NCBI GenBank assembly: GCA_963809665.1
Contig: CAWEKC010000003.1
Span: 105,473 to 169,472, forward strand
DNA: 64,000 nt
Reading direction: 5' to 3'
Origin: Candidatus Gottesmanbacteria bacterium
Lineage (GTDB): Bacteria > Patescibacteriota > Microgenomatia > UBA10105 > UBA927
Numbering within the stretch: the stretch's first letter is position 1; each line of letters opens with the position of its first letter. Positions 1-42,233 of the stretch are shown in pieces. A model generated the notes under the pieces. That model worked only from the letters and a program-made list of their open reading frames with translations, was not told where the DNA came from and made no database searches. The position numbers and the translations under genes are program-made.

Positions 1-23
1 TGATATTTCCTGATGTAAAAGTT

Positions 24-647
24 TTGATTTGGGATTTTGACGGGACATTCTACAAACCCAACCCGGAGTTGTTCCGCGATGTCCGGGAATCCGAATATCG
101 CGCGATCATGGATCTAACCGGGTGGACGCGCGGGAAGACAATAGAGGAGTTTCATAAACTTCATAAAGTGACAATTCAAAGCGCAACTGCGGTTGTTTCA
201 AAATTATGCAATATTTCTATTGCGGCCGCAGCGACTGAATCGGAAAAATATTTTGATAGGAGGAAATATCTTCACCGGGACCCGCGGCTTATAGAGATGT
301 TTGAAAAACTTAAGCACTTCCGGCATTTTATTTTTGCAAACGGGGTGATAGCTCATCATAAGGAAACGCTCGATGTTTTGGGGATACCTGCCGGTACGTT
401 TGAAGAGTTCGTGAGTTCGGAAACAGTCGGTGTCACCAAACCGGATCCCGCGGGATTTTTGTATATTATGAAAAAGACCGGATTGGTGCCCAAAGCACAT
501 CTCATGATCGGGGACAGGGAATTAGTCGATCTGGTACCGGCTAAAGCTCTGGGTATGCACACGTGTTTGGTGTGGAGCGATACACAAAGTACAGTTGCTG
601 ATGTCACACTCCCAAGTGTGTACGATGTAGTACAACTGCTGGTATGA
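24..647 (+). CDS. HAD-superfamily hydrolase
   Basis: N-terminal DxDGT motif (WDFDGTF), HAD motif III-like GDRELVDL near the C-terminus; TTG start; upstream stop at 18-20 bounds the ORF. Confidence 0.55.
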   Translation: MIWDFDGTFYKPNPELFRDVRESEYRAIMDLTGWTRGKTIEEFHKLHKVTIQSATAVVSKLCNISIAAAATESEKYFDRRKYLHRDPRLIEMFEKLKHFRHFIFANGVIAHHKETLDVLGIPAGTFEEFVSSETVGVTKPDPAGFLYIMKKTGLVPKAHLMIGDRELVDLVPAKALGMHTCLVWSDTQSTVADVTLPSVYDVVQLLV

Positions 648-1225
648 AACGCGGGAAACTTATTGTGTTTGAGGGTGTCAGCGGGACGGGAAAAGAGACG
701 CAGGCGAAATTATTGCAGAAATTTTTAACGAAAAAAGGAATTATTTCCCACATTGTTTTTCATCCGTCACCGGAATTGAAAGAAATTCTTTCCAAATGGA
801 GAAAAGACAGGGCAATTGACGAAGTAACGGAAACATATTTACTTCTGGCAGACCGTTCAAGTCGCGTGAGGCAGGATATACTACCGGCGCTAGAAAAAGG
901 GGAGTGGGTGATAAGTTTACGAAATTACGTGAGTGGTTTAGTATATCAGGGAAAAACAGAAGCAAGGCGACGCTGGATTGCGAAAGAGTTTTCGCGTTTT
1001 GAACCGAAACCAGATTTTTTATTTCATTTTGATATTACGCCGAAAGACGCAATGAAACGCATACTCAAGCGCGGTGAACCGCTCGGAAAATTTGAAACGC
1101 CGAATTTACTTAACGAAAAACGAAATAATTATCGAAAAGTATTAAAAAATATTCCACATATTACTATTGACGTCAGTTCGTCTATTAACGAGATTCATCG
1201 CAACATGCTAAAATATATTTTATGA
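644..1225 (+). CDS. Thymidylate kinase-like paralog (divergent; lacks canonical DR[YHF] motif)
   Basis: P-loop FEGVSGTGKETQ; overall Tmk architecture; the position of DR(Y/H/F) reads LRN, lid region YQG retained; overlaps next gene by 4 bp. Confidence 0.55.
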   Translation: MKRGKLIVFEGVSGTGKETQAKLLQKFLTKKGIISHIVFHPSPELKEILSKWRKDRAIDEVTETYLLLADRSSRVRQDILPALEKGEWVISLRNYVSGLVYQGKTEARRRWIAKEFSRFEPKPDFLFHFDITPKDAMKRILKRGEPLGKFETPNLLNEKRNNYRKVLKNIPHITIDVSSSINEIHRNMLKYIL

Positions 1226-1866
1226 AACGCGGATTTTTTATTGTTTTTGAGGGTGGTGAAGGAGCAGGGAAATCGGTCCAGGCTAAAATACTGGGTGACA
1301 GGCTACGGGATGCGGGAAAGATCGTTGTTCTTACGCGCGAGCCCGGCGGAACCCCTATTGGTGAAAAAATCCGTTCTATAACACATGATCCTGAAAACAG
1401 AGACTTAGATCCGGTCGCCGAGGCATATCTTATGGCGGCGTCACGGGCTCAGCATGTACGCGAGGTTATATTGCCGGCGCTCGCGCAGGGGAAAATTGTC
1501 ATTTCAGATCGGTTTGCGGATAGCAGTATTGCTTATCAGGGATATGGAAGGAATTTGGGGCCTAAAGAAATGATGGATCTCAACGAGTTGGCAGTCAACG
1601 GCGCAAAATCAGACCTTGTTATTCTTCTTGATGTACCTCCGGCAGTGGGACGTGTGAGATTTGAAAAAGAACGTAAACAAAAAGATCGTCTTGATATGCA
1701 GCAAAAAGATTTTTACGACCGGGTTCATGCAGGATATTTAACTCTTGCAAAAAATAATTCTTCGCAGTATGTTGTTGTCGACGCGACGCAATCCGTCGAA
1801 GACGTAGCATCTTATATTTGGAAAATTGTTGCAGATTTATTGAGAAAACGAAATGGCAAAGAGTAA
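1222..1866 (+). CDS. tmk: Thymidylate kinase
   Basis: P-loop FEGGEGAGKS, canonical DRF...AYQGYGR motifs, typical length 214 aa. Confidence 0.8.
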   Translation: MKRGFFIVFEGGEGAGKSVQAKILGDRLRDAGKIVVLTREPGGTPIGEKIRSITHDPENRDLDPVAEAYLMAASRAQHVREVILPALAQGKIVISDRFADSSIAYQGYGRNLGPKEMMDLNELAVNGAKSDLVILLDVPPAVGRVRFEKERKQKDRLDMQQKDFYDRVHAGYLTLAKNNSSQYVVVDATQSVEDVASYIWKIVADLLRKRNGKE

Positions 1867-2440
1867 AACTCGAAAAACAGGTAAACTGACGGTTATAGCC
1901 GGACCAATGTTCGCCGGTAAAACAACCAAACTTCTTACACTTTTCAGTGTTTTGTCAAATTTGGGTTACAGCACACTGTGTTTTAAAGCGGAAGCGGTAA
2001 GCAATGGGGGTATGGGACATACCACATCGCATGACGAGCGGCAACTGCCGGTTATTTATATCGACATGAACAAACCCGAAAAGGTTTTGGAATACGTGGA
2101 CGGGCAGGGGATCCGGAAAGTGATTATTGACGCCGTGCATTTTTTCCCGAAACAGGAATTCATAAGTGTCGTTAAAGAATTACTTGCATTAGGAATAGAT
2201 GTGTATGTCAACGGGCTTATTTATGATTATCGTAAACAGGAATACGGCGCCACAAAAACGCTCATGGGCATGGCGGACGAATGCATAGAGCAGTTCAGTA
2301 TATGCGTCAAATGCGGTGCAAAAGCCGCTCACACCGAACGTATTGCCGGAAGTACGAAATTGTCGGAAGGTACGACCGGTAAGATAGCAGCCAAATATAT
2401 AGCCGTCTGTTCCTCCTGCCACAAAATTTACCGGGGATGA
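1853..2440 (+). CDS. tdk: Thymidine kinase
   Basis: P-loop GPMFAGKTT; C-terminal zinc ribbon CVKCG...CSSCH typical of type II TK. Confidence 0.8.
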   Translation: MAKSKTRKTGKLTVIAGPMFAGKTTKLLTLFSVLSNLGYSTLCFKAEAVSNGGMGHTTSHDERQLPVIYIDMNKPEKVLEYVDGQGIRKVIIDAVHFFPKQEFISVVKELLALGIDVYVNGLIYDYRKQEYGATKTLMGMADECIEQFSICVKCGAKAAHTERIAGSTKLSEGTTGKIAAKYIAVCSSCHKIYRG

Positions 2441-3246
2441 ACATCAATACCCAACGCGATGTTATTTTGGTTATCGGTCCTTCGGCCAGCGGAAAAACAC
2501 ACGTGTTGAATCTTCTGCGTAAGGAAATCGCCGGAACATACGGATTACCGCACGAAATAGTTCCGCTTTCCGATTCCCATACCATTCTTGACAGAGTACG
2601 CGAGGATGACCGCCTGGGTGGTCGTCACCATTATCACTCATGGTCCCGCGGTATGGATTCGCACAATCATGCAGATCATCCGGAGATCATACCGTTTACT
2701 CTCGCAGGTGACCGTATAGGACATGCATTTATCCGTGATTTTTTTCAGGGTCTCGCGCAGTTACCCCACACAGGCGTCATCCGGTATGCCGAATGGTCAG
2801 GAGGGAAAAACACGAATCCCCGCGAGGATCGTGCTTCCCTGACAGACCTGTCGTTTCAAACGATTACCCGGCTTATCCGACAGGGCAGGATTTCGGCTGA
2901 AGGATTGGACAGGGTTGTCGCAGCGATTCACGTAGATACTGCCCGCGAATATCGTATGCACCTAAACGAGGATCGTTCGATGCCGACCGCCGATGAAATT
3001 AAATTTGGGTACGCATCATGGCCTTTGGATCAAGCCGGCATGAATATTTTTGGTGAAGATGATTTTTTGAATGACACACCATCATTATTGAATGAGCATA
3101 ATATCCCGTTCATCCGGACACTCCACAATAATCTTGACGGCAGTCTGGATCGTGAACTCCGGCGTGTGTTACCTGAGATAGTTTCTTTGTGGGGAGGCGG
3201 CGAAAATGGACGGCCCGGTTCCGTACAGGAGAGGGACCGGCGATGA
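2437..3246 (+). CDS. P-loop NTPase/kinase-like protein of unknown specificity
   Basis: Walker A VIGPSASGKTHV at N-terminus; His-rich segment GRHHYHSWSRGMDSHNHADH; no recognisable family beyond P-loop; overlaps downstream phosphatase gene by 4 bp (ATGA). Confidence 0.4.
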   Translation: MNINTQRDVILVIGPSASGKTHVLNLLRKEIAGTYGLPHEIVPLSDSHTILDRVREDDRLGGRHHYHSWSRGMDSHNHADHPEIIPFTLAGDRIGHAFIRDFFQGLAQLPHTGVIRYAEWSGGKNTNPREDRASLTDLSFQTITRLIRQGRISAEGLDRVVAAIHVDTAREYRMHLNEDRSMPTADEIKFGYASWPLDQAGMNIFGEDDFLNDTPSLLNEHNIPFIRTLHNNLDGSLDRELRRVLPEIVSLWGGGENGRPGSVQERDRR

Positions 3247-3800
3247 GAACGATCGTCTATCTTATCCGCCACGGGGCGTATGAGAATCCTCAGGAGATTA
3301 TGCCGTATCGAATGCCGGGATTCCATTTGTCAGAAACAGGCAAGTCTGATATAGGAAAACTGGCAGTTACACTGCGCCAACATACTATTGAGGCGGTGTA
3401 TGCCAGCCCGCTGACCCGGACACAGGAAACCGCGCAGATTTTAGCAAAACAATACAATCTTCCGGTCCTGACGGATAACCGGTTAATGGAGGTCAGGTCT
3501 CCGGTGCAGGGGAAGCCCGAAGGTTTTACTGAGTCGATGGGAGGGTGGAAGATATATGAGTCTGACTGGTATAAACAAGGGAAGGGTGAAACACCGGCAG
3601 AAATTTTTTCACGGATGGATTCATTTATGAAAGAAATAATACGGGAACATAGCGGAAAAGAAATTATTGTCGTATCGCATGGGGATCCGATCATGATATA
3701 TATTGCAGGGCACGAAGGTAAGCCGCTAACTGCGCAGAGTTTGTCCACTACCCCGTATATTCAGATGGGGCAGTGTGTTCCCATTTCATTTCCCGCTTGA
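3243..3800 (+). CDS. Histidine phosphatase (phosphoglycerate mutase family)
   Basis: RHG catalytic motif (LIRHGAYEN) at N-terminus, C-terminal SHGD motif; start moved to internal ATG at 3243 that overlaps upstream stop. Confidence 0.65.
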   Translation: MRTIVYLIRHGAYENPQEIMPYRMPGFHLSETGKSDIGKLAVTLRQHTIEAVYASPLTRTQETAQILAKQYNLPVLTDNRLMEVRSPVQGKPEGFTESMGGWKIYESDWYKQGKGETPAEIFSRMDSFMKEIIREHSGKEIIVVSHGDPIMIYIAGHEGKPLTAQSLSTTPYIQMGQCVPISFPA

Positions 3801-7813: not shown

Positions 7814-8362
7814 ATGATAGAATCCATTCTCAACACCGCACGGGAGAAGATGAAGAAAGCCCTCGATGTTACGCGCACGGATCTCACCTCCATTCGTTCA
7901 GGCCGTGCCACCCCAGCACTTGTTGAAAATATTTTCATTCTTGCCTATGGCGGAAGCCAGCGTCTTCGCGTGCAGGAAATGGCGACGATAGCCACGATGG
8001 ATTCTAAAACGCTGGTTCTTACCCCGTATGATCCGTCAACGATTGCGGAAATCGAGAAGGGGATTATGGCAGGCAGTTCGGGTCTTACACCCGTCGTTGA
8101 TCGGGAAATCATCCGTATTACGATTCCGATGCTGTCCGAAGAGAGACGTCTCGAATATATCAAACTCGCCAAAGCAAAATTGGAAGGCGGCCGCGTAATG
8201 GTGCGCCAAATCCGCGGAGAGGCCATGAAAGAGCTCAAAAAATTACTCTCTGAAGATGAACAAAAACACGGGGAACGCCTTGTGCAGGAGCTTACCGATG
8301 AAATGGTTGCGGAAATAGACAATCTCGGGACTAAAAAAGAAGCGGAACTCCTTCAGGTATAA
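7814..8362 (+). CDS. frr: Ribosome recycling factor
   Basis: MIESILNTAREKMKKALDVTRTDLTSIRSGRATPALVENI is a typical RRF N-terminus; 182 aa; start set at internal ATG 7814 rather than ORF-track 7691 that overlaps tsf. Confidence 0.85.
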   Translation: MIESILNTAREKMKKALDVTRTDLTSIRSGRATPALVENIFILAYGGSQRLRVQEMATIATMDSKTLVLTPYDPSTIAEIEKGIMAGSSGLTPVVDREIIRITIPMLSEERRLEYIKLAKAKLEGGRVMVRQIRGEAMKELKKLLSEDEQKHGERLVQELTDEMVAEIDNLGTKKEAELLQV

Positions 8363-8365
8363 CCT

Positions 8366-9466
8366 ATGCTACTCACTGCCGTCGTTTTTATCATCATTCT
8401 CAGCATTCTCGTTCTGATCCATGAGTTCGGCCATTTTGCCGTGGCCCGGCTCATCGGAGTGAAAGTGGAAGAATTCGGATTCGGATTGCCGCCGCGCATC
8501 ATCGGGAAAAAGATCCGCGGCATTATCTATTCCCTGAACTGGCTTCCGATCGGCGGGTTTGTCAAACTTGCCGGTGAGGATGATGCCGAATCAACACACC
8601 CTCATATCAAGAACCGAAAGGAATATTTTTTTGCGCGCAGTAAAAAAGAACGCGCAGTCATTCTCCTGGCAGGCGTCACGATGAATTTTCTCTTAGCTGT
8701 CGGGATTACGGCGTATATCTTAACGCAAGGTGTACTGGAACCGACCGGACATGTCCATATTGAGAGTGTCGTTTCCGGCAGTCCAGCCTCCGCGGCGGGA
8801 TTGAAATCGAACGATGTCATTAGCCGTATTACATATCCGAAAGGAGTTCAACCAGCGCCCACGGAATCTAAAAAAATTATCATTCCGACGGATCTTATTG
8901 ATACGGTCAAATCGCATGCAGGTCAACAGGTTGTACTTACCGTAATTCGGGGTTCACAGACCCTGGAACTGCCGGTTATTCCCCGAAAGGAATCTCCCAA
9001 AGGGGAAGGTCCTATGGGTGTCGTGATTTCGGATTTGGAAAACCACGTGTATCCGGTGACACAGGCGCCGTTTGCGGCGATCAAAATTAATCTTGAACGG
9101 GCATGGGCGATGCTTGCTGGAATCGGAACTCTGATCGGTAAGATAGCGACTCTCAAACCGGTGGGCAGCGATGTGGCCGGCCCCATCGGCATTGCCGAGG
9201 TTACGGGGACTGCTGTGAAGTTCGGCTGGAAGGCGGTTCTGGAGTTTATGAGTATCCTATCCCTGAATTTGGCTGTCCTTAATATTTTGCCGATACCGGC
9301 ACTGGACGGCGGAAGACTCGCATTTGTATTTTTGGAAAAAATATTAGGGAAAAAAGTGAAACCCGCGTTTGAGCAATCGACCCACCAGATAGGTATGATA
9401 ATTCTGTTTATTCTCATCATTCTCATCTCCATCAACGATGTCCTTCGCCTCGCCCGCGGCGGGTAA
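8366..9466 (+). CDS. rseP: Site-2 protease (RseP/zinc metalloprotease M50) with PDZ domain
   Basis: HEFGHF zinc motif in first TM helix, PDZ-like segment (SGSPASAAGLKSNDVI), C-terminal LDGG motif. Confidence 0.8.
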   Translation: MLLTAVVFIIILSILVLIHEFGHFAVARLIGVKVEEFGFGLPPRIIGKKIRGIIYSLNWLPIGGFVKLAGEDDAESTHPHIKNRKEYFFARSKKERAVILLAGVTMNFLLAVGITAYILTQGVLEPTGHVHIESVVSGSPASAAGLKSNDVISRITYPKGVQPAPTESKKIIIPTDLIDTVKSHAGQQVVLTVIRGSQTLELPVIPRKESPKGEGPMGVVISDLENHVYPVTQAPFAAIKINLERAWAMLAGIGTLIGKIATLKPVGSDVAGPIGIAEVTGTAVKFGWKAVLEFMSILSLNLAVLNILPIPALDGGRLAFVFLEKILGKKVKPAFEQSTHQIGMIILFILIILISINDVLRLARGG

Positions 9467-34119: not shown

Positions 34120-35153
34120 TCAGTTCTTTTGAAAGATTGAAGCGAGGACTTCCTTTTTTTTGAGCTTGGTATGGGGCGGAATAGCAGATTGAGGAATAAT
34201 GGGAACCGCGGCTTTTTCGACGGATTTTCCAAGCAACATCAACTTTCTGATCGGGTGATAATGGATGCGGCCTTCAGCTAAGAATATGCCGCCGAAGATG
34301 AGGATTGCCCCGCCCAAAAAGGGAGAGTGATTGGTTCGTGTAAAATCAGTGCGCCCGCCACCGTACCTACGAGAGGATCAACATATGCAAACATTGCGGT
34401 ATCGGTGGCAGAGATTTTGGACAGACCCCAGGCAAATAAGCCATACGCGATGGTACTGCTGAAAATCGCCCCATACGCGATACCTACATAGCCGCGCCAA
34501 TCTAAGAGGGCATACAGATGAGGTATACGTACATATTCATAGAAAGCTAATGGGAGAAAGCTTGCCGCTCCGACCAAAAACGCCCAAAACGTGAATGCCC
34601 ACGGATTATATTTATTGACAATCCTTTTGCCGACAATGGTTTGGCCGACAGCGGCGAGTGTTGCGATCAGGAGATAGAGATTTCCAAGGACCGATCCGTC
34701 TACACCGCGAAGCAATAATGGTTCGATGATGATGAGAAGAATGCCCAATGTCCCCAATACCATTCCAAAGAATTTTTTCAGTTTAAATCCTTCGTGAAGA
34801 AAGAGTATCGCAAAAAAAAGTATGAGAATCGGTTGCGCGCTTGCGATAACAGGGGAATTAATAGACAAAGTGAGTTTCAGTCCCCAGAAGAAAAAAATAA
34901 TATTAAGCGTAATGCCTAAAAAACCATAGAGAAACAGAAGTATCGCATCTTTCCTGCTGGTGAGTGGAAGTGCAACCTTTTTGCGGATTATGATAAGTAT
35001 CATAATGGCACCCAGGAAAAAGCGCCAGAAGGCGAGTGTAAACGGAGGGATATTCTCTAAGCTTAACTTAAATATTGCCGCGGCCGCGCCCCAGATGATG
35101 TTGGCAATGATAAGTGCCAAAAAAGCTTTTTGGACAGTCGTGAGCGATTTCAT
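34120..35153 (-). CDS. EamA/DMT-family transporter, interrupted by homopolymer indel near 34308-34320
   Basis: Ten hydrophobic helices with two EamA repeats; last helix (GGAILIFGGIFLAEG) encoded in -1 frame after CCTTTTTGGGCGGGG run. Confidence 0.65.
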
Positions 35154-35156
35154 GAA

Positions 35157-36371
35157 TTAATTTGCCCGGAGTTTTTCAATCAGTTTCTCAACAGAAAATT
35201 CTTCCTGTTTTTTCGTTCCCATATTTTTCAGTTTCACAACGTTCCGTTTTACTTCATCAGGTCCCGCAATTACGACATACGGAATTCCCTTTTTATCGGC
35301 ATATTTCAGTTGTTTGTCAAGTTTTGCCGACGTATCGACGTAGACTTCCGCATTAAGTCCGGCCCGGCGTAAGGAACTCGTGAGTTCAAGCGATGATCCT
35401 AACTGCTCCGGCGAAAAAATTGTGACCAATAGTTGTGTAGCAGTTGGTTGAACCGGCAACAAGTTAAATTCACCCAACGCCTCTACTATGCGGTCAAAAC
35501 CGAACGCAATGCCTACCGCAGGGACATCCTGGCCGGAAAATTGACCGATCAGTCCGTCGAACCGCCCTCCGCCGGCGAGCGATCCGCTTGTATACGCACC
35601 GGCTTTCAATTCAAATATCGTGCTTGTGTAGTATTCCAGTCCCCGGGCTAAAAACCGGTTGAACCGGAAATCCACATCCTCTTTGTATCCCAGACGCTTG
35701 AGCGCTTCGAAAATTTTCCAGATCCGTTCGGTCGGCTTGGAATTTTTCAGTGAAGCAATAAGATCTTTTGCATTTTTCCTCCCGTCGGCTTCCAATTCCC
35801 GAATGACTTCCTCGACCCCGATTTTATAGAGTTTATCGATGATGGTAATTTCCTTTTTGGTAAGCTTAAGGTCGTCGAATATCGTCCGGTCGTTGACATC
35901 CATGATAATGCCTGAGAACCCGAGTTGTTTAAACGTATTAAGGGAGCAATCAATAATTTCCGCGTCGGCAAGGGGAGAATCCGACCCGATTGTATCAATG
36001 TCGCACTGCATAAATTCGCGGAACCTGCCTTTCTGCGTATTTTCCGCGCGCCACACAGGCTGGATTTGATAGCGCTTGAACGGTTTGGGAAGTTCCGGAT
36101 ATTGGGCAACAACGCGCGAGAGGGGAACGGTCTGGTCATAGCGAAGGCCCACGTTCCGTTTTCCGTTATCGCGAAATAGATATAATAATTTATCCGCCTC
36201 GCCGCCGTATTTTCCCATGAGCGTTTCAGCGTATTCCAACGCAGGTGTTTCTAACGGGTCAAATCCGTACCGTTCAAATACTGCCCTGATTTTCCCCACG
36301 ACAATTTGTCGCGCGAGGGCGGCTGAAGGCAAAAAATCCCGAAATCCTTTCAATGTTTGTGCTTTGATCAT
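35157..36371 (-). CDS. hisS: Histidine--tRNA ligase
   Basis: KGFRDFLP, class II motifs (FRYDQTVP-like RYDQTVPLSR, GGRFDGL), C-terminal anticodon-binding domain. Confidence 0.9.
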   Translation of the reverse strand: MIKAQTLKGFRDFLPSAALARQIVVGKIRAVFERYGFDPLETPALEYAETLMGKYGGEADKLLYLFRDNGKRNVGLRYDQTVPLSRVVAQYPELPKPFKRYQIQPVWRAENTQKGRFREFMQCDIDTIGSDSPLADAEIIDCSLNTFKQLGFSGIIMDVNDRTIFDDLKLTKKEITIIDKLYKIGVEEVIRELEADGRKNAKDLIASLKNSKPTERIWKIFEALKRLGYKEDVDFRFNRFLARGLEYYTSTIFELKAGAYTSGSLAGGGRFDGLIGQFSGQDVPAVGIAFGFDRIVEALGEFNLLPVQPTATQLLVTIFSPEQLGSSLELTSSLRRAGLNAEVYVDTSAKLDKQLKYADKKGIPYVVIAGPDEVKRNVVKLKNMGTKKQEEFSVEKLIEKLRAN

Positions 36372-36372
36372 A

Positions 36373-36576
36373 TTAATTTCCTTTTAATACTACCAATGCT
36401 TTTTCTTTATCTTTTTTTTGTACGGATAACCGTATTCCTTCCGTCATGGACGGGTACATACCGCCGGCATCGTCCCCCTCGATAAAAGCCGCAATCCCGC
36501 TTCCCTCAAGAACACTTTTGGCAACTTCCGCTTCCAGTCTTCTCGTATATGTCGCGATGACAACCACCTCCGGCAT
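36373..36576 (-). CDS. DUF2007-like small protein
   Basis: 67 aa, pattern VVVIATYTRRLEAEVAKSVLEGSGIAAFIEGDD typical of DUF2007. Confidence 0.45.
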   Translation of the reverse strand: MPEVVVIATYTRRLEAEVAKSVLEGSGIAAFIEGDDAGGMYPSMTEGIRLSVQKKDKEKALVVLKGN

Positions 36577-36637: not shown

Positions 36638-37645
36638 CTATTCGGGTGTCCAATAGGCTGCCATATTAAGTAATCTCTGCTCTTTATTTTTGATGGTTTT
36701 TCTTACTGTTAACCCTGGTTCATCTAATCCGGGTGAACTGACACGGATTGGTAGGTCAACCAAATCTTCAGGACGAATAAGAATAAAGTTTTGTTCTTCC
36801 ATATTTTCATATATTTTGTCGGCCATATTCCAACAGGCACAGCTAAAACTCCACCAATCAACGCTGCTTATGCTTGCCCACTTCGCCATTTGTTCTTTGC
36901 TTGCGTCAGGTGCAATATACGGGAACGCTCTGGAAAGCTTGCCGGATGTAAGCGGTTCGTTAATCACTCTTCCAGATAAGGGTACAAAGGGGATAAAATC
37001 CCTTGCCTCAATCCAATCAACTGGCGTGCCGATATTTGTTTTTGTAATTGTAAGAATTCCATTAGACCGCAACGTACGAATCGATTCGTCAGTAGCGATA
37101 CCGAGCACAGCGGTATTGACTTTGATGTTCTCTTTAGCTAACTTTTGTGCTAGATCAACCAAAGAGCCTCCGGAATATGCGCCAACATCTATAACGCAAA
37201 TATCGCGTTTATCACCCAGTAGATAGTTAAGCTGTTGAATCTGCGTAATAATATCTGGATACCCAGGACGCGCAATTTCTGCAATGGAAAAATCCGCATT
37301 AAGTCCACGGGTGATATTCAGACATGCATCGGCTTCGTCTGCACCGTAAATCGGATCTAGTGACACAATGGGATAGCCAAGTTGTTTAACTCGAGCTACG
37401 TCCGTTTGGATATTTTTCTGAATTATTTCAGCATTCAGTACAGTAAGCGGAACCGGTCGAATAGTCTTTTCTAATTCTTCCGTTAAATCCGTTTGTACTT
37501 TGCGATATACATCAGCGGACGGCGGTTTCCAGCCCTTATACCTACACAGTGCGTTCATAAGTACCGGAACATCCCATGACAACACATATGACGGTGTCGG
37601 TTCGAGTTCTTTTGGACGAAATTCAATTTTTTCACTATTTACCAT
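36638..37645 (-). CDS. Hypothetical protein with PRTase-like PRPP-binding loop (ICVIDVGAYSGGS)
   Basis: 335 aa; hhhhD-x-G-x-x-S-G-G-S resembles type I phosphoribosyltransferase loop; 6-bp gap to upstream LOG-like gene suggests operon. Confidence 0.35.
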   Translation of the reverse strand: MVNSEKIEFRPKELEPTPSYVLSWDVPVLMNALCRYKGWKPPSADVYRKVQTDLTEELEKTIRPVPLTVLNAEIIQKNIQTDVARVKQLGYPIVSLDPIYGADEADACLNITRGLNADFSIAEIARPGYPDIITQIQQLNYLLGDKRDICVIDVGAYSGGSLVDLAQKLAKENIKVNTAVLGIATDESIRTLRSNGILTITKTNIGTPVDWIEARDFIPFVPLSGRVINEPLTSGKLSRAFPYIAPDASKEQMAKWASISSVDWWSFSCACWNMADKIYENMEEQNFILIRPEDLVDLPIRVSSPGLDEPGLTVRKTIKNKEQRLLNMAAYWTPE

Positions 37646-37651
37646 ATATTT

Positions 37652-38191
37652 TCACCTTCTTTCTAAAGGCTGTATTAAAGTTAAGGCCATATGTACTGCT
37701 TCTTTGGGAGTACGCGCCGCTTTTACCTTGATTCTTTTTCTACCATCTAAATATTGTCCCGCGAGTTTTTCACTCCATCCACCAGTGCCGATAAGTACGA
37801 CCACGGGAATGTTTGCCTGATAGGCAATTGCAATTTCCGTGAGCGTTCCCGATCCGCCGCTTATGCAAATAATTGCGTCGCAGCTTAACACTAGAGCGAG
37901 CTCGCGCCCCCCGCCACGTTCGAGGCCAGACGCAATCACGACATCGACGTTTTTTTCGACAATTTTTAACCCTTTCCCGTACGTGACGCCCACAGTAAGA
38001 CCGCCTGCATTTTTTGCACCTCGACCTGCTGCTGTAGAAAGCGAGTCAAAGTCTTTTTCAGCACCGAAAAGAAGCGTTGCGTTGTTTTTTGCAACCCAAT
38101 AGCCGACTTCTTCCGCAAGCCGTTCAATAGTTTTCGTGTATTTCAGATCCGAGCAGGATCCCATAACACCGATTTGAAATTTTCTTTTCAT
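37652..38191 (-). CDS. LOG/TIGR00725-family (SLOG) Rossmann-fold protein
   Basis: IGVMGSCSD...AAGRGAKNAGGLTVGVT and ISGGSGTLTE (PGGxGTxxE-like) motifs; 179 aa. Confidence 0.6.
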   Translation of the reverse strand: MKRKFQIGVMGSCSDLKYTKTIERLAEEVGYWVAKNNATLLFGAEKDFDSLSTAAGRGAKNAGGLTVGVTYGKGLKIVEKNVDVVIASGLERGGGRELALVLSCDAIICISGGSGTLTEIAIAYQANIPVVVLIGTGGWSEKLAGQYLDGRKRIKVKAARTPKEAVHMALTLIQPLERR

Positions 38192-38197
38192 ATATAC

Positions 38198-38226
38198 ATT
38201 CGCAGAACAATAAAACCTGCGAATGG
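38198..38226. promoter_or_regulatory. Perfect 9-bp stem hairpin (CATTCGCAG-N11-CTGCGAATG) 7 nt upstream of LOG-like start codon
   Basis: Inverted repeat read directly; lies in the 5' leader of the minus-strand operon. Confidence 0.35.
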
Positions 38227-38360
38227 GAGAGGGGAGAGGATTTAGTTAAAATTAGAAATTAAAAATTGATGAAGGTCTCGCCTCGACCACGCGTAGGTTT
38301 AAATCAGGCGATGATGAAGCCCGCAAGAAGAAGAAAACGATGATAAACAAAAGTATTTCA

Positions 38361-38394
38361 TATTAACGCGTTAATATATTAACATGTTAATATA
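38361..38394. promoter_or_regulatory. Two overlapping perfect palindromes TATTAACGCGTTAATA and TATATTAACATGTTAATATA (half-site TATTAAC)
   Basis: Dyad symmetry verified base by base; in promoter region of LOG-like operon and 14 bp beyond the stop codon of the TrpR-like gene. Confidence 0.6.
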
Positions 38395-38407: not shown

Positions 38408-38785
38408 TTACATTTGGAAGGGGTTTTTCATACCGCGGAGCTTGCCGCTTTTGAACCGGGGATGTGTGTGATAATCCTGGGTTGCCCGATCGTCAAATAT
38501 GCGGGAGGCGATCGTTGCATATCCGCCCCGACCTTTTTTCAGCCAGCGGGCGACACGGGTGACGGTCGCTGTAGACACATTAAGTTTCTTGGCGATATCT
38601 GCGTATGATTCGTGGCGAATGAGCAATTTAACCATCTGCCATCGGTTCGCAAATTCGGTAAGTTCAGGTAACGTAAGAAGATCGCGGAAAAAATTGACTG
38701 CTTCTTCTTTCGATTTTATTTCCCGTACTGCGTCGAACAATTCATTCATTTCCGGGGTAGGATACATGAGTGTCTGTCTTTTCAT
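38408..38785 (-). CDS. TrpR-like/YerC-YecD family DNA-binding protein
   Basis: LLTLPELTEFANRWQMVKLL...IAKKLNVSTATVTRVARWLKKG matches Trp-repressor-like HTH family. Confidence 0.6.
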   Translation of the reverse strand: MKRQTLMYPTPEMNELFDAVREIKSKEEAVNFFRDLLTLPELTEFANRWQMVKLLIRHESYADIAKKLNVSTATVTRVARWLKKGRGGYATIASRIFDDRATQDYHTHPRFKSGKLRGMKNPFQM

Positions 38786-38815
38786 ATTAATACGTTAATA
38801 TATTAATGAAGAAAT
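38786..38815. promoter_or_regulatory. Imperfect copy of TATTAAC-N-TTAATA inverted repeat in promoter of TrpR-like gene
   Basis: ATATTAATACGTTAATATATTAAT immediately upstream of the regulator start codon. Confidence 0.4.
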
Positions 38816-42145: not shown

Positions 42146-42231
42146 GCCTGGGTGGCGGAATTGGTAGACGCGCAGCTCTCAAAAAGCTGTGAAGCTAACA
42201 CTTCATGAGAGTTCGAGTCTCTCCCTAGGCA
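42146..42231 (+). tRNA. tRNA-Leu (anticodon CAA)
   Basis: 7-bp acceptor GCCTGGG/CCTAGGC, D-arm GCG-GAATTGGTAGA-CGC, anticodon stem CAGCT/AGCTG with loop CTCAAAA, long variable arm, T-arm GAGAG-TTCGAGT-CTCTC. Confidence 0.85.
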
Positions 42232-42233
42232 CT

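Follow-up and report, generated by a model that had tools for sequence, protein, structure and literature searches.

Locus and transcription unit

Two genes lie side by side on the minus strand of the window (the whole 64,000-nt stretch of DNA that was analysed), separated by a spacer of exactly 6 nt (37646-37651). Both are real at the positions originally predicted for them, and the first carries the predicted motif, ISGGSGTLTE. We refer to them as SLOG4 and PRTL, and three further genes follow on the same strand.

37652..38191, minus strand: SLOG4 gene, 179 aa; SLOG cluster-4 (LOG-like) protein, putative ribotide N-ribohydrolase
36638..37645, minus strand: PRTL gene, 335 aa; divergent protein of type I phosphoribosyltransferase fold, with putative PRPP loop ICVIDVGAYSGGS
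36373..36576, minus strand: DUF2007-like gene, 67 aa; Pfam E-value 1.7e-5, 25.3 bits, just under the cutoff of 25.7
35157..36371, minus strand: hisS (histidyl-tRNA synthetase), 404 aa, identified by its Pfam families
34278..35153, minus strand: EamA-family transporter gene

The gaps downstream of PRTL are 61 nt to the DUF2007-like gene, 1 nt to hisS and 3 nt to the EamA gene. The pair had been described as a two-gene operon; the pairing stands, but the transcription unit is most likely longer and extends through DUF2007, hisS and EamA, with hisS probably sharing a unit with the DUF2007-like gene. The hisS product appears to be a complete HisRS, anticodon-binding domain included, and the gene order hisS-EamA-L31 is common to the window and the related loci L012 and L013. 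The salvage genes that had been listed for the window (two tmk, tdk, prs and an IMPDH of 373 aa) are correctly identified. The window also holds tgt; queuine salvage, considered in view of this gene and of the Q34 carried by tRNA-His, was set aside as not histidine-specific and with nothing further in its support.

A HisR-like repressor and its predicted operators

Upstream of the pair we found a repressor gene, a promoter and three palindromes.

38408..38785, minus strand: hisR-like repressor gene (TrpR family, YerC/YecD type), 125 aa
38376..38404, minus strand: sigma-70-type operon promoter TTGACA-17-TAATAT, 10/12 matches, TG-extended
38376-38393 and 38360-38377, no strand assigned: two overlapping 18-bp operator palindromes, ATATTAACATGTTAATAT and ATATTAACGCGTTAATAT
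38784..38801, no strand assigned: third operator-like palindrome, ATATTAATACGTTAATAT, before the hisR-like gene, with 0 mismatches to ATATTA-N6-TAATAT

The hisR-like protein, whose true start may be the second methionine (~38767), scores above the curated cutoffs of both Pfam Trp_repressor (75.6 bits; cutoff 27) and NCBIfam TIGR02531 yecD_yerC (64.4 bits; cutoff 42.2). YerC corresponds to HisR, a histidine-dependent repressor with a 20-bp operator of 7-6-7 layout and the consensus cacTTTA-N6-TAAAgtg, and histidine-dependent DNA binding has been described for the HisR of Ruminococcus gnavus (PMC9413887). We assume that histidine is the effector of the HisR-like protein as well.

The two overlapping palindromes both read ATATTA-N6-TAATAT and span the promoter spacer, the -10 element and the start of a leader ORF, and the TTGACA of the promoter is invariant in 5/5 group-2 leaders. 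These palindromes combine the HisR-type 7-6-7 layout with lineage-specific half-sites and are conserved in the related loci L008, L012, L013 and L009. The position of the third palindrome is likewise occupied in L008 and L013, and the hisR-like gene is probably autoregulated through this predicted site. A scan allowing at most one mismatch to ACTTTA-N6-TAAAGT or ATATTA-N6-TAATAT returned 75 operator-type matches in 1.15 Mb, most of them just upstream of hisR-like, SLOG4 or PRTL genes. The features of a HisR system, i.e., a regulator above the TIGR02531 cutoff and predicted palindromic operators before both the targets and the regulator's own gene, are found together here. Palindromic operators of a TrpR-like regulator had been proposed earlier; they are genuine and shared with related loci, but the YerC/HisR-type link to histidine had been missed.

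As in the Firmicutes HisR regulon, a TrpR-family regulator is combined with a 20-bp 7-6-7 palindrome and with sites before the regulator gene, and the published consensus recurs with its core, ACTTTA-N6-TAAAGT, in many CPR loci (PMC9413887). The targets differ, being histidine biosynthesis and uptake genes in Firmicutes and SLOG4, PRTL and hisS in CPR, and the half-sites of the window's lineage, ATATTA-N6-TAATAT, are unlike the published ones.

A histidine leader peptide and mutually exclusive RNA helices

The region between the promoter and SLOG4 contains a short ORF followed by three complementary segments.

38299..38361, minus strand: leader ORF, 20-aa peptide MKYFCLSSFSSSCGLHHRLI, closed by a stop codon
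38276..38298, minus strand: attenuator segment A (ACCUACGCGUGGUCGAGGCGAGA), abutting the leader stop codon
38216..38237, minus strand: attenuator segment B (UCUCCCCUCUCCCAUUCGCAGG), whose 3' half is the 5' arm of a 9-bp hairpin
38197..38205, minus strand: attenuator segment C (CUGCGAAUG), the 3' arm of the same hairpin

The leader peptide contains two consecutive histidines, encoded by CAT CAT at 38316-38311, three codons before the stop. Orthologous leaders end in HHHRLP, HHHRLI, HHTLN and HHSSV, each directly before the stop codon: conservation covers the His codons and their spacing from the stop, and the flanking residues vary. The 9-bp hairpin is perfect (arms 38225-38217 and 38205-38197, 11-nt loop, dG -13.6 kcal/mol, z = -3.3), as had been noted, but it ends 5 rather than 7 nt before the SLOG4 ATG and is the arm of an attenuator rather than an isolated structure. 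In L008, L013 and L009, read directly, a hairpin occupies the equivalent place and keeps its pairing despite a different sequence. Of the 18 pairs between segments A and B, 5 show compensatory changes, and the proportion of paired cells is 98.6%, as compared with 43-61% in slid controls; pairing of B with C excludes the proximal half of A:B. The window therefore has consecutive His codons near the end of a short ORF and mutually exclusive helices (A:B versus B:C), which are the features of a his-type attenuator, and the 9-bp hairpin is, as predicted from these elements, its 3:4-type element.

No U-run terminator was called after the window hairpin, where the sequence is UAUAUAUG. The missing U-tail, together with the abutting start codon, suggests translational rather than transcriptional control. 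In the proposed mechanism, when histidine is sufficient the ribosome would reach the leader stop codon and mask segment A, leaving B to pair with C and form the hairpin 5 nt before the SLOG4 start. A ribosome stalled at the His codons would instead allow A to pair with B, so that C would stay single-stranded and SLOG4-PRTL-DUF2007-hisS-EamA would be expressed. In single-sequence minimum-free-energy folds the hairpin stays under all masking conditions and the switch is not seen; it appears only in co-transcriptional folding with ribosome masking. The case for the switch in the window group combines a co-transcriptional (kinetic) argument with evidence from just four or five related leaders. For the 190-nt leader a riboswitch was considered and rejected, there being no relevant Rfam match, the His leader family included, at E<=5 for the window or at the gathering score for 8 related loci.

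In the main CPR group, which takes in most of the other lineages, the leader contains His-His-His, lies directly before PRTL and is followed by a U-tailed terminator. These leaders have four mutually complementary segments (1:2/3:4 versus 2:3), and U-run intrinsic terminators are present in loci such as L064, L047, L066, L019 and L021. Runs of at least three histidines occur in 13/72 PRTL upstream regions, and such runs of any other amino acid, taken as a specificity control, in at most one. Altogether, more than 20 loci have a His-codon attenuator in front of PRTL.

The hisL-type attenuator of Proteobacteria similarly places a short leader ORF, with a run of His codons near its stop, before mutually exclusive helices, and has in common with the main CPR group a U-tailed intrinsic terminator as its last helix. 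It controls the histidine biosynthesis operon, whereas the CPR attenuator controls an orphan PRTase-like gene and hisS. The CPR leaders also differ in having only 2-3 His codons and in matching no Rfam family, and the window in its final hairpin, which lacks the U-tail and abuts the start codon.

SLOG4 belongs to SLOG cluster 4

The 179-aa protein had been assigned to the LOG/TIGR00725 family, which the curated cutoffs do not bear out: it scores 86.4 bits against TIGR00725 in NCBIfam (cutoff 106.9) and falls below the thresholds of the LOG models (PF03641, 18 against 27 bits; TIGR00730, 23.9 against 96.35; NF058542, 21.6 against 300). It belongs instead to SLOG cluster 4, passing PF18306 LDcluster4 with 104.5 bits (cutoff 26.3; 5e-30) over profile positions 1-150 of 151. 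The SLOG clusters were reportedly defined by Burroughs et al. in 2015. The LOG-type PGGxGTxxE motif and the Arg-containing element upstream of it are both present in SLOG4: the SGGSGTLTE of ISGGSGTLTE aligns to PGGIGTLEE of LOG structure 3qua, and GLERGGGRE to its MRERKRE. E118 is invariant, and E90, R91, R95 and E96 are conserved at 90% or more; going by structural work on LOG enzymes, we take the aligned Arg and Glu residues to be catalytic positions.

In sister loci, the place of SLOG4 is taken by a HAD phosphatase and a nucleoside hydrolase (IU_nuc_hydro), with the leader on one side and the PRTL-M24-hisS-EamA flank on the other remaining the same. This replacement in place supports a putative N-ribohydrolase role for SLOG4. 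SLOG4 is a member of the superfamily of the LOG/PpnN N-ribohydrolases and has their GGxGTxxE motif as well as the Arg/Glu element upstream of it, and the swap for a nucleotidase and a nucleoside hydrolase argues for the same, putative, chemistry; it differs in scoring below all LOG cutoffs and in its nearest solved relatives, TM1055 and the Moco carrier proteins, which are ligand binders and not LOG enzymes. This kinship counts against the ribohydrolase reading.

PRTL is a divergent type I phosphoribosyltransferase-fold family

The 335-aa PRTL protein has the type I PRTase core fold, a parallel beta-sheet core with flanking helices, in agreement with the original prediction. Its closest folds are APRT, OPRT, XPRT and UPRT, and PurR and PyrR are among its structural and sequence matches. 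The family profile matches OPRT at 4e-5, with the Arg of the PRTL flexible loop aligned to the OPRT catalytic loop. The loop ICVIDVGAYSGGS corresponds in position to the PRPP loop, as originally read. A PRPP loop comprises a hydrophobic strand, two acidic residues and a small-residue S/T-G-x-S/T turn, and the rest of the family has the canonical V-DD-V-FSG, or else EDG-F-TG-T, at this position (54-sequence alignment). The window protein itself has a single acidic residue in a D-[VA]-G form common to its 7-locus subfamily, which has lost the second one; activity or donor use could differ in this subfamily. UPRTases have D-P at the equivalent loop position.

Nothing significant was found for the window PRTL in Pfam, NCBIfam, PADLOC or PDB sequence searches, and ten family members scanned singly stayed below cutoff (Pribosyltran at most 19.9 against 26.3 bits, PRTase-CE at most 19.2 against 27). 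In the 54-member alignment, scored by E-value and not by bit score, 27 members at E<=0.01 match Pribosyltran (PF00156; best match 4.9e-6), 12 match UPRTase (PF14681) and 8 match PRTase-CE (PF24390); weak NCBIfam matches to APRT or archaeal HPT models occur in 25/54, and weak matches to ComF or GntX models in 2 and 4 of the 54. The cutoff of a canonical PRTase model was reached by no member in the Pfam and NCBIfam scans.

Members are ~300-335 aa long. The terminal regions, previously described as long and unrelated, turn out to be conserved, structured parts of the family: an N-terminal extension is retained, and the C-terminal region carries the family-specific motifs D..ERDF.PG.P.SGR and WAS. 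Against the core fold, predicted PRPP loop and flexible-loop Arg that PRTL has in common with APRT, OPRT and UPRT stand these terminal parts, the failure to reach any curated model at threshold and, in the window subfamily, D-V-G where type I PRTases have D-D-V. The family has no name and comprises ~1,000 sequence clusters; a cluster look-up gave no names, and a word-indexed homology search with the family alignment gave only 13 proteins with uninformative ones. A HAD-PRTL fusion also exists (P0076).

The gene pair is embedded in histidine-related neighbourhoods

Related loci were examined for gene content around PRTL. SLOG4 is near PRTL in 63/83 of them and adjacent in 43; because the PRTase fold was found and the pair is conserved as neighbours, the original prediction holds on both of these points. 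The gene cluster built around SLOG4 and PRTL is widespread among the ultra-small CPR/Patescibacteria, occurs almost only in their genomes and is undescribed (with Burroughs et al. 2015 outside this comparison).

A hisS gene is found at most four genes away from PRTL in 30/83 loci, often as a direct neighbour predicted to be co-transcribed behind one attenuator, and tRNA-His accounts for 23 of the 39 tRNA genes located up to 4 kb from PRTL. A true hutH is found near PRTL in at least 10 loci. The genes hisG and hisE cluster with PRTL, hisG co-occurring with it in three loci, and no other histidine biosynthesis gene was found in any PRTL locus. GNAT and ArgE-like M20 genes are co-located as well, and the accessory genes include a uridine-phosphorylase-like protein, a RihA/C-like nucleoside hydrolase, a pyrimidine-5'-nucleotidase-like HAD and a PfkB sugar/nucleoside kinase. 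Multiple PRTL paralogue groups can share one locus. A further protein (cluster 19, ~300 aa, possibly a kinase) belongs to no detectable family.

Proposed function

In comparative sequence analysis, the dominant signal is a predicted histidine-specific control of the operon, shown by the HisR-type repressor, the His-codon leader and the his-linked neighbours. We propose, with a probability of roughly 0.6, that SLOG4 and PRTL form the core of a histidine-starvation operon, controlled by HisR and a histidine leader, and act as a PRPP-based ribosylation/de-ribosylation module. PRTL would carry out PRPP-dependent ribosylation of a nitrogen acceptor, and SLOG4, as a LOG-like N-ribohydrolase, would convert a 5'-ribotide to base and ribose 5-phosphate; in sister lineages the HAD phosphatase and the nucleoside hydrolase would do the same job in two steps. 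The net effect would be base mobilisation or exchange serving histidine supply or histidyl-tRNA charging, not general nucleotide salvage. One objection to this explanation is that a PRTase working alongside a ribotide hydrolase on one base would amount to a futile cycle. According to published descriptions, the CPR bacteria as a group have neither amino-acid biosynthesis nor de novo nucleotide synthesis (PMC10768705). The reported absence of amino-acid biosynthesis counts against a PRTase that relieves histidine shortage.

Our preferred guess for the PRTL acceptor, put forward tentatively and itself well short of probable, is histidine or a close imidazole derivative. In its full form, which we hold to be equally doubtful, PRTL would ribosylate the imidazole of histidine or of a derivative (urocanate, N-acetyl-histidine) and, with SLOG4 or the HAD and hydrolase, would constitute a ribotide/riboside cycle. 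It would be induced when His-tRNA runs short, and through it scarce histidine would be captured, mobilised or signalled in bacteria unable to synthesise it. Such a cycle would explain why enzymes of the 'nucleoside' type sit inside a histidine regulon, why the cluster takes in hutH and genes for amino-group chemistry (GNAT, ArgE-like M20) and why it is PRTL in particular that has the attenuator before it.

CPR/Patescibacteria represent a very large, mostly uncultivated share of bacterial diversity, and many of them carry two predicted histidine-sensing devices, a HisR-type repressor and a ribosome-stalling leader peptide, both aimed at an uncharacterised enzyme pair and hisS. The locus yields a concrete, testable CPR regulatory circuit for the shortage of a single amino acid. 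Its regulation predicts a role in histidine supply for the PRTL family and offers a way to approach the function of the SLOG cluster 4 proteins, to which we found none assigned. If the acceptor is non-canonical, the pair would represent a new reaction in phosphoribosyl-transfer chemistry and show a route by which epibiotic bacteria get an essential amino acid.

The base-exchange or salvage module originally proposed is possible but, in our view, unlikely. SLOG4 would here split an NMP into base and ribose 5-phosphate, and PRTL would re-attach a canonical purine or pyrimidine base to PRPP; the histidine link would reflect shared regulation with hisS, or adjustment of the PRPP or nucleotide pool in amino-acid starvation, for which the ppGpp-activated PpnN of E. 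coli offers a parallel. The nearest folds of PRTL and the weak APRT/archaeal HPT matches are consistent with this, as are the salvage-rich window and the co-existing paralogue groups, which are expected if base specificities differ; the pyrimidine-nucleoside-like accessory genes fit ordinary salvage just as well. However, the dominant histidine-specific control is left unexplained, namely the placement of PRTL behind His-codon attenuators and the co-location of hutH, hisG/hisE, tRNA-His, GNAT and ArgE-like M20 genes. Moreover, no PRTL member reaches a canonical cutoff, and the motif D..ERDF.PG.P.SGR is absent from known base PRTases. PRTL could also be a non-enzymatic, PRPP- or nucleotide-sensing regulatory subunit that modulates HisRS or translation in histidine shortage, which we regard as very unlikely. 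PurR and PyrR, both PRTase-fold regulators, are among its matches, HisZ-HisG offers a case in which a paralogue of HisRS is paired with a PRTase, hisS is often the direct neighbour of PRTL behind one attenuator, and the window subfamily lacks the second acidic loop residue. Yet the canonical PRPP loop and the flexible-loop Arg are retained across the wider family, HAD phosphatases, kinases and nucleoside hydrolases are found in its fusions and operons, which points to a small-molecule pathway, and Pfam scans detected no nucleic-acid-binding domain in PRTL.

SLOG domains have been described as sensors or processors of nucleotide signals, with one YpsA branch coupled to a PRTase gene (PMC6459960). 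These roles and the weak ComF and GntX matches would accord with a module for nucleotide signalling or conflict, as proposed for SLOG-PRTase pairs, or with a counterpart of the DNA-uptake pair DprA/ComFC, which joins a SLOG-superfamily protein to a PRTase-like one, but we consider this reading highly improbable. A defence or conflict system was rejected on the lack of any PADLOC match for SLOG4 or PRTL at E<=1, on the housekeeping context (hisS, tRNA-His, ribosomal genes) and on the strong conservation of SLOG4, which at 58-77% identity across CPR lineages is unlike diversifying conflict genes; the histidine-specific control argues in the same direction. ComFC has a zinc finger; such a finger is not evident in PRTL, since neither the first-hit alignment nor the 54-sequence alignment contains a conserved Cys cluster, and SLOG4 has no match to a DprA model in Pfam. 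The YpsA pairs likewise join a SLOG gene to a PRTase gene in a conserved manner, but with a SLOG clade other than cluster 4 and another PRTase family, and the accessible part of the source mentions neither histidine-specific regulation nor linkage to hisS or tRNA-His (PMC6459960, which cites Burroughs et al. 2015 for these pairs).

The histidine-starvation reading also has a counterpart in HisZ-HisG(short), where a PRPP-using transferase is coupled to a HisRS-type protein under histidine control. The CPR partner, however, looks like a complete HisRS, and HisG has the type IV rather than the type I PRTase fold. PRTL is not simply a substitute for HisG, because the two co-occur in three loci; as an ATP-PRT replacement it was judged unlikely, with hisG and PRTL in one operon in L061 and the other histidine biosynthesis genes absent. 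The presence of hutH, a catabolic gene, in a starvation operon appears contradictory; the contradiction is apparently resolved at least in L018, L019 and L029, because hutH lies upstream of the leader there and PRTL downstream of it.

A conserved gene pair in CPR genomes

The genes of the window locus follow one another on the minus strand (ORF calls):

38408-38785, minus: TrpR-family gene, 125 aa
37652-38191, minus: SLOG4, a LOG-like protein of SLOG cluster 4, 179 aa
36638-37645, minus: PRTL, a phosphoribosyltransferase-fold protein, 335 aa, 6 nt beyond the SLOG4 ORF
36373-36576, minus: DUF2007-like ORF, 67 aa
35157-36371, minus: hisS
34278-35153, minus: EamA transporter gene

The EamA gene encodes 291 aa in the window frame and 344 aa on an independent assembly with an identical PRTL protein, and a 65-aa ORF (34120-34317) continues it in another frame; there may be a frameshift or a sequencing difference near 34280-34320.

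Both motifs quoted in the original prediction, ISGGSGTLTE and ICVIDVGAYSGGS, were found in the window ORFs, and the PRTase fold that it assigned to the 335-aa protein is borne out by an AlphaFold model built from eight homologues (pLDDT 77.7, pTM 0.77). As a query, the window PRTL matched nothing in Pfam, NCBIfam, PADLOC or PDB sequences. A word-indexed search returned only eight clusters of homologues, and an exhaustive profile search returned 995 representatives (E <= 1e-3), mostly of 290-330 aa. No Pfam or NCBIfam model is dedicated to this family and none of 10 individually scanned members reached a curated threshold; half of 54 members matched Pribosyltran at E <= 0.01, and the family profile matches human OPRT at 4e-5. 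The PRPP-loop consensus is the canonical V-L-V-D-D-V-x-F-S-G, accompanied by family-specific invariant positions (R113, D210, D216, G225, Y243) and a family-specific motif, VID.ICERDF.PGVPLSGR. The window protein falls in a small subfamily, represented by seven loci, whose loop has lost its second acidic residue (D-[VA]-G-A-Y-S-G-x-S). Because UPRTases carry D-P at this position, the loss need not, by analogy, abolish activity.

Scanning one genome per species yielded 80 PRTL loci, nearly all in Patescibacteria (CPR) genomes, with up to three paralogues per locus. Many contigs labelled "uncultured Gammaproteobacteria bacterium" (loci L012, L013, L015, L019, L021 and others) have CPR gene content and a CPR-type cluster, and L081 carries an Alphaproteobacteria label; the assembled genomes have probably been assigned to the wrong taxon. 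Two or three paralogues of different subgroups share a cluster in L048 (6709-13303), and multi-PRTL clusters also occur in L014, L015, L026, L036, L040, L078 and L080. Their PRPP loops read EDG.F[ST]G.T, DDG.WTG.T or DDV.FSG, and a His leader was seen only ahead of the DDV-type copy.

SLOG4 exceeds the threshold of Pfam PF18306 (SLOG cluster 4; 104.5 bits) and falls short of the TIGR00725 cutoff and, by a wide margin, of every LOG model in Pfam and NCBIfam, so the LOG/TIGR00725 label given to it originally is not retained. Among solved structures, Thermotoga TM1055 (1rcu) and the Moco carrier proteins are closest to it, LOG enzymes being more distant (1e-6 to 1e-9, family profile); the conserved elements GLERGGGRE and SGGSGTLTE align to MRERKRE and PGGIGTLEE of LOG structures. 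Identity among lineages is 58-77% for SLOG4 as compared with 22-28% for PRTL.

Within the window's PRTL subfamily, the slot between leader and PRTL holds either SLOG4 (window, L008) or a HAD phosphatase with an IU_nuc_hydro nucleoside hydrolase (L001, L009, L011, L012, L013). The leader is common to both arrangements, and so are most of the downstream genes (PRTL ... hisS-EamA-L31), except that the window has DUF2007 where the sister loci have M24. A LOG-type enzyme converts a ribotide to base and ribose(-phosphate) in a single step; a nucleotidase and a nucleoside hydrolase together achieve this in two. This replacement in place is the best available evidence on SLOG4 function, and argues for a putative N-ribohydrolase rather than a mere ligand carrier.

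Histidine-related genes surround the pair

The gene neighbourhood was surveyed in 83 non-redundant loci: ORFs were predicted, their products grouped by BLAST, and representatives of the groups annotated.

Loci, out of 83, carrying each gene type at most 4 genes from PRTL
SLOG4: 63 (adjacent to PRTL in 43)
hisS: 30
TrpR/YerC-type gene: 28
Pyrimidine-5'-nucleotidase-like HAD: 18
Cof-type HAD: 17
hutH above equivalog cutoff: 10 (14 by gene maps)
GNAT: 8 (also fused to PRTL in family member P0016)
PfkB kinase: 8
Rih-like nucleoside hydrolase: 6
Uridine-phosphorylase-like protein: 6
ArgE-like M20 deacylase: 5
M24 peptidase: 4
hisG (with or without hisE): 3

By these counts the pair is conserved as neighbours, contrary to what would have refuted the original prediction. 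A HAD-PRTL fusion also occurs (P0076). Of the 74 tRNA genes in PRTL loci, 30 encode tRNA-His; among the 39 that lie within 4 kb of PRTL the number is 23. This strong enrichment of tRNA-His (GUG) beside PRTL/SLOG4 clusters is seen, for example, at L019 10270-10344, L022 2797-2871, L082 9713-9787, L061 8146-8221 and L002 6661-6738, among others; the window has no tRNA-His, its sole tRNA being tRNA-Leu (42146-42232).

Long-form hisG and hisE lie beside SLOG4 in CPR contigs (L002 8440-10166, with the same layout in L003-L007), with further hisG/hisE sites at L061 5207-6856, where a short His-His leader ORF precedes hisG, and L045 4898-5767. No other histidine biosynthesis gene occurs in any locus, and an ATP-PRT/PR-ATP pyrophosphatase pair left on its own in this way implies a use for PR-AMP, or for a derivative of it, outside histidine synthesis. 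A few genes from the SLOG4-hisE-hisG operon of L003, an unusual 664-aa product (7936-9253) joins adenylate kinase domains to GTP cyclohydrolase II (Pfam ADK, ADK_lid, GTP_cyclohydro2).

Other recurrent neighbours include a radical-SAM-like protein with a CxxxCxxC motif (cluster 53; L086, L082) and a protein resembling LD-carboxypeptidase/MccF by eye from its N-terminus (cluster 55; L086, L057, L088), jointly at L086 9173-11278, L057 9865-10866, L088 10061-11035 and L082 3866-4963. A conserved protein of ~300 aa (cluster 19), matching nothing in Pfam, NCBIfam or PDB sequences, directly precedes PRTL in HutH-HAD-HAD-c19-PRTL-SLOG4 operons (L019 6782-7663, L014 13161-14072, L058 6206-7147; also L082, L029, L038).

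Putative HisR operators and histidine leader attenuators

The window regulator exceeds the NCBIfam TIGR02531 (yecD_yerC) cutoff. YerC is HisR, a member of the TrpR family that represses histidine genes, and its Ruminococcus gnavus representative requires histidine to bind a 20-bp palindrome; the published operator consensus is cacTTTA-N6-TAAAgtg (PMC9413887). Two 18-mer patterns, scanned across the loci (1.15 Mb) with at most 1 mismatch, gave 75 matches, most of them just upstream of hisR-like, SLOG4 or PRTL genes and often in tandem. The putative operator is ACTTTA-N6-TAAAGT in most lineages and ATATTA-N6-TAATAT in the window's. The palindromes originally described in the window are present and overlap a near-consensus promoter (TTGACA-17-TAATAT, 38404-38376), with two operator-type sites over the promoter and one ahead of the hisR-like gene. 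Immediately downstream of PRTL there are also perfect ACTTTA-N6-TAAAGT sites (L076 8874, L044 8903, L030 3578), which may be roadblock sites or control the next gene.

In the main family, comprising most other CPR lineages, short leader ORFs (e.g., MNLKNKVSINVHHHNRLFLEEIGCG*) occur 60-145 nt before PRTL, GNAT-PRTL or GNAT-M20-PRTL-hisS. Behind them come four complementary segments (CTCTTCC, GGAAGAGATTGG, CAATCCCTTCC and GGAAGGGATT) and a U-run, the textbook design of a leader-peptide attenuator. The 2:3 pairing has 6 compensatory pairs. At least three consecutive His codons were present in a short ORF in 13 of 72 PRTL upstream regions, as compared with at most one region for any other amino acid. 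Since the attenuator sits between SLOG4 and PRTL (e.g., L064, L037, L047), or between hutH and PRTL (in at least L018, L019, L029), PRTL is predicted to be the gene specifically induced by His-tRNA shortage in these lineages. No Rfam family matched the leader of the window (E <= 5) or those of 8 related loci (gathering score).

The window's own lineage has a different leader:

38361-38299: leader ORF, encoding MKYFCLSSFSSSCGLHHRLI*
38298-38276: segment A, directly after the leader stop
38237-38216: segment B, the RNAalifold partner of A
38205-38197: segment C, the 3' arm of a 9-bp hairpin, abutting the SLOG4 start codon

The leader peptides of four related loci finish with HHHRLP*, HHHRLI*, HHTLN* and HHSSV*; both the His codons and their spacing to the stop are kept. 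The RNAalifold A:B helix has 18 pairs, 5 with compensatory changes, and 98.6% of cells are paired, as compared with 43-61% in controls with a slid partner. Segment B also supplies, with its 3' half, the 5' arm of the perfect hairpin reported originally, which we recovered (38225-38217 with 38205-38197; dG -13.6 kcal/mol, z = -3.3 vs shuffles) 5 nt, rather than 7 nt, before the ATG. When the nascent transcript was folded to the end of B with the ribosome absent or stalled at the second His codon, the complete A:B helix formed; a ribosome occupying the stop codon masked the proximal half of A and left the hairpin arm free. In computed folds of the full-length leader RNA the two states lie 3.6 kcal/mol apart. 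Because no U-tail follows the window hairpin, it would occlude translation initiation rather than terminate transcription.

Possible functions of the module

Comparison of sequences establishes the conserved SLOG4/PRTase-fold pair, confined almost wholly to CPR genomes, its HisR-type operators, its His-codon leader attenuators and its linkage to hisS, tRNA-His, hutH and hisG/hisE. Beyond that, PRTL would use PRPP, SLOG4 would hydrolyse a ribotide, and the module would serve histidine supply or charging. Ordinary base salvage or exchange, as originally proposed, is possible, in that the neighbours resemble pyrimidine-nucleoside enzymes, but it leaves the histidine regulation unexplained. A conventional biosynthetic role is unlikely, because amino-acid biosynthesis is reported to be missing from CPR bacteria (PMC10768705) and only hisG and hisE among the his genes occur in the loci. 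Within the proposed role in histidine supply or charging, histidine or an imidazole is a speculative, low-probability candidate for the PRTL acceptor, one that would, if true, account at once for the nucleoside-type enzymes, hutH, the regulation and the amino-group enzymes (GNAT, M20).

The PRTase fold, the LOG-like fold, HisR and the leader-peptide attenuator are of known kinds, and SLOG-PRTase gene pairs are already noted for the YpsA clade (PMC6459960). What is new is the combination of parts, its target, and its occurrence in a group reported without amino-acid biosynthesis. The literature searched held no account of the PRTL family, its regulation or CPR leader-peptide attenuators; the 2015 SLOG-cluster paper, which was outside that search, may mention the neighbourhood.

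The salvage genes reported elsewhere in the window (two tmk, tdk, prs and a 373-aa IMPDH) were all confirmed. A compact nucleotide-metabolism block at the window start (3-3800) includes a 269-aa P-loop-like protein without a Pfam match (2437-3246), two adjoining thymidylate kinase paralogues, thymidine kinase, a His_Phos_1 phosphatase and a HAD hydrolase of the same type as that of the PRTL clusters.
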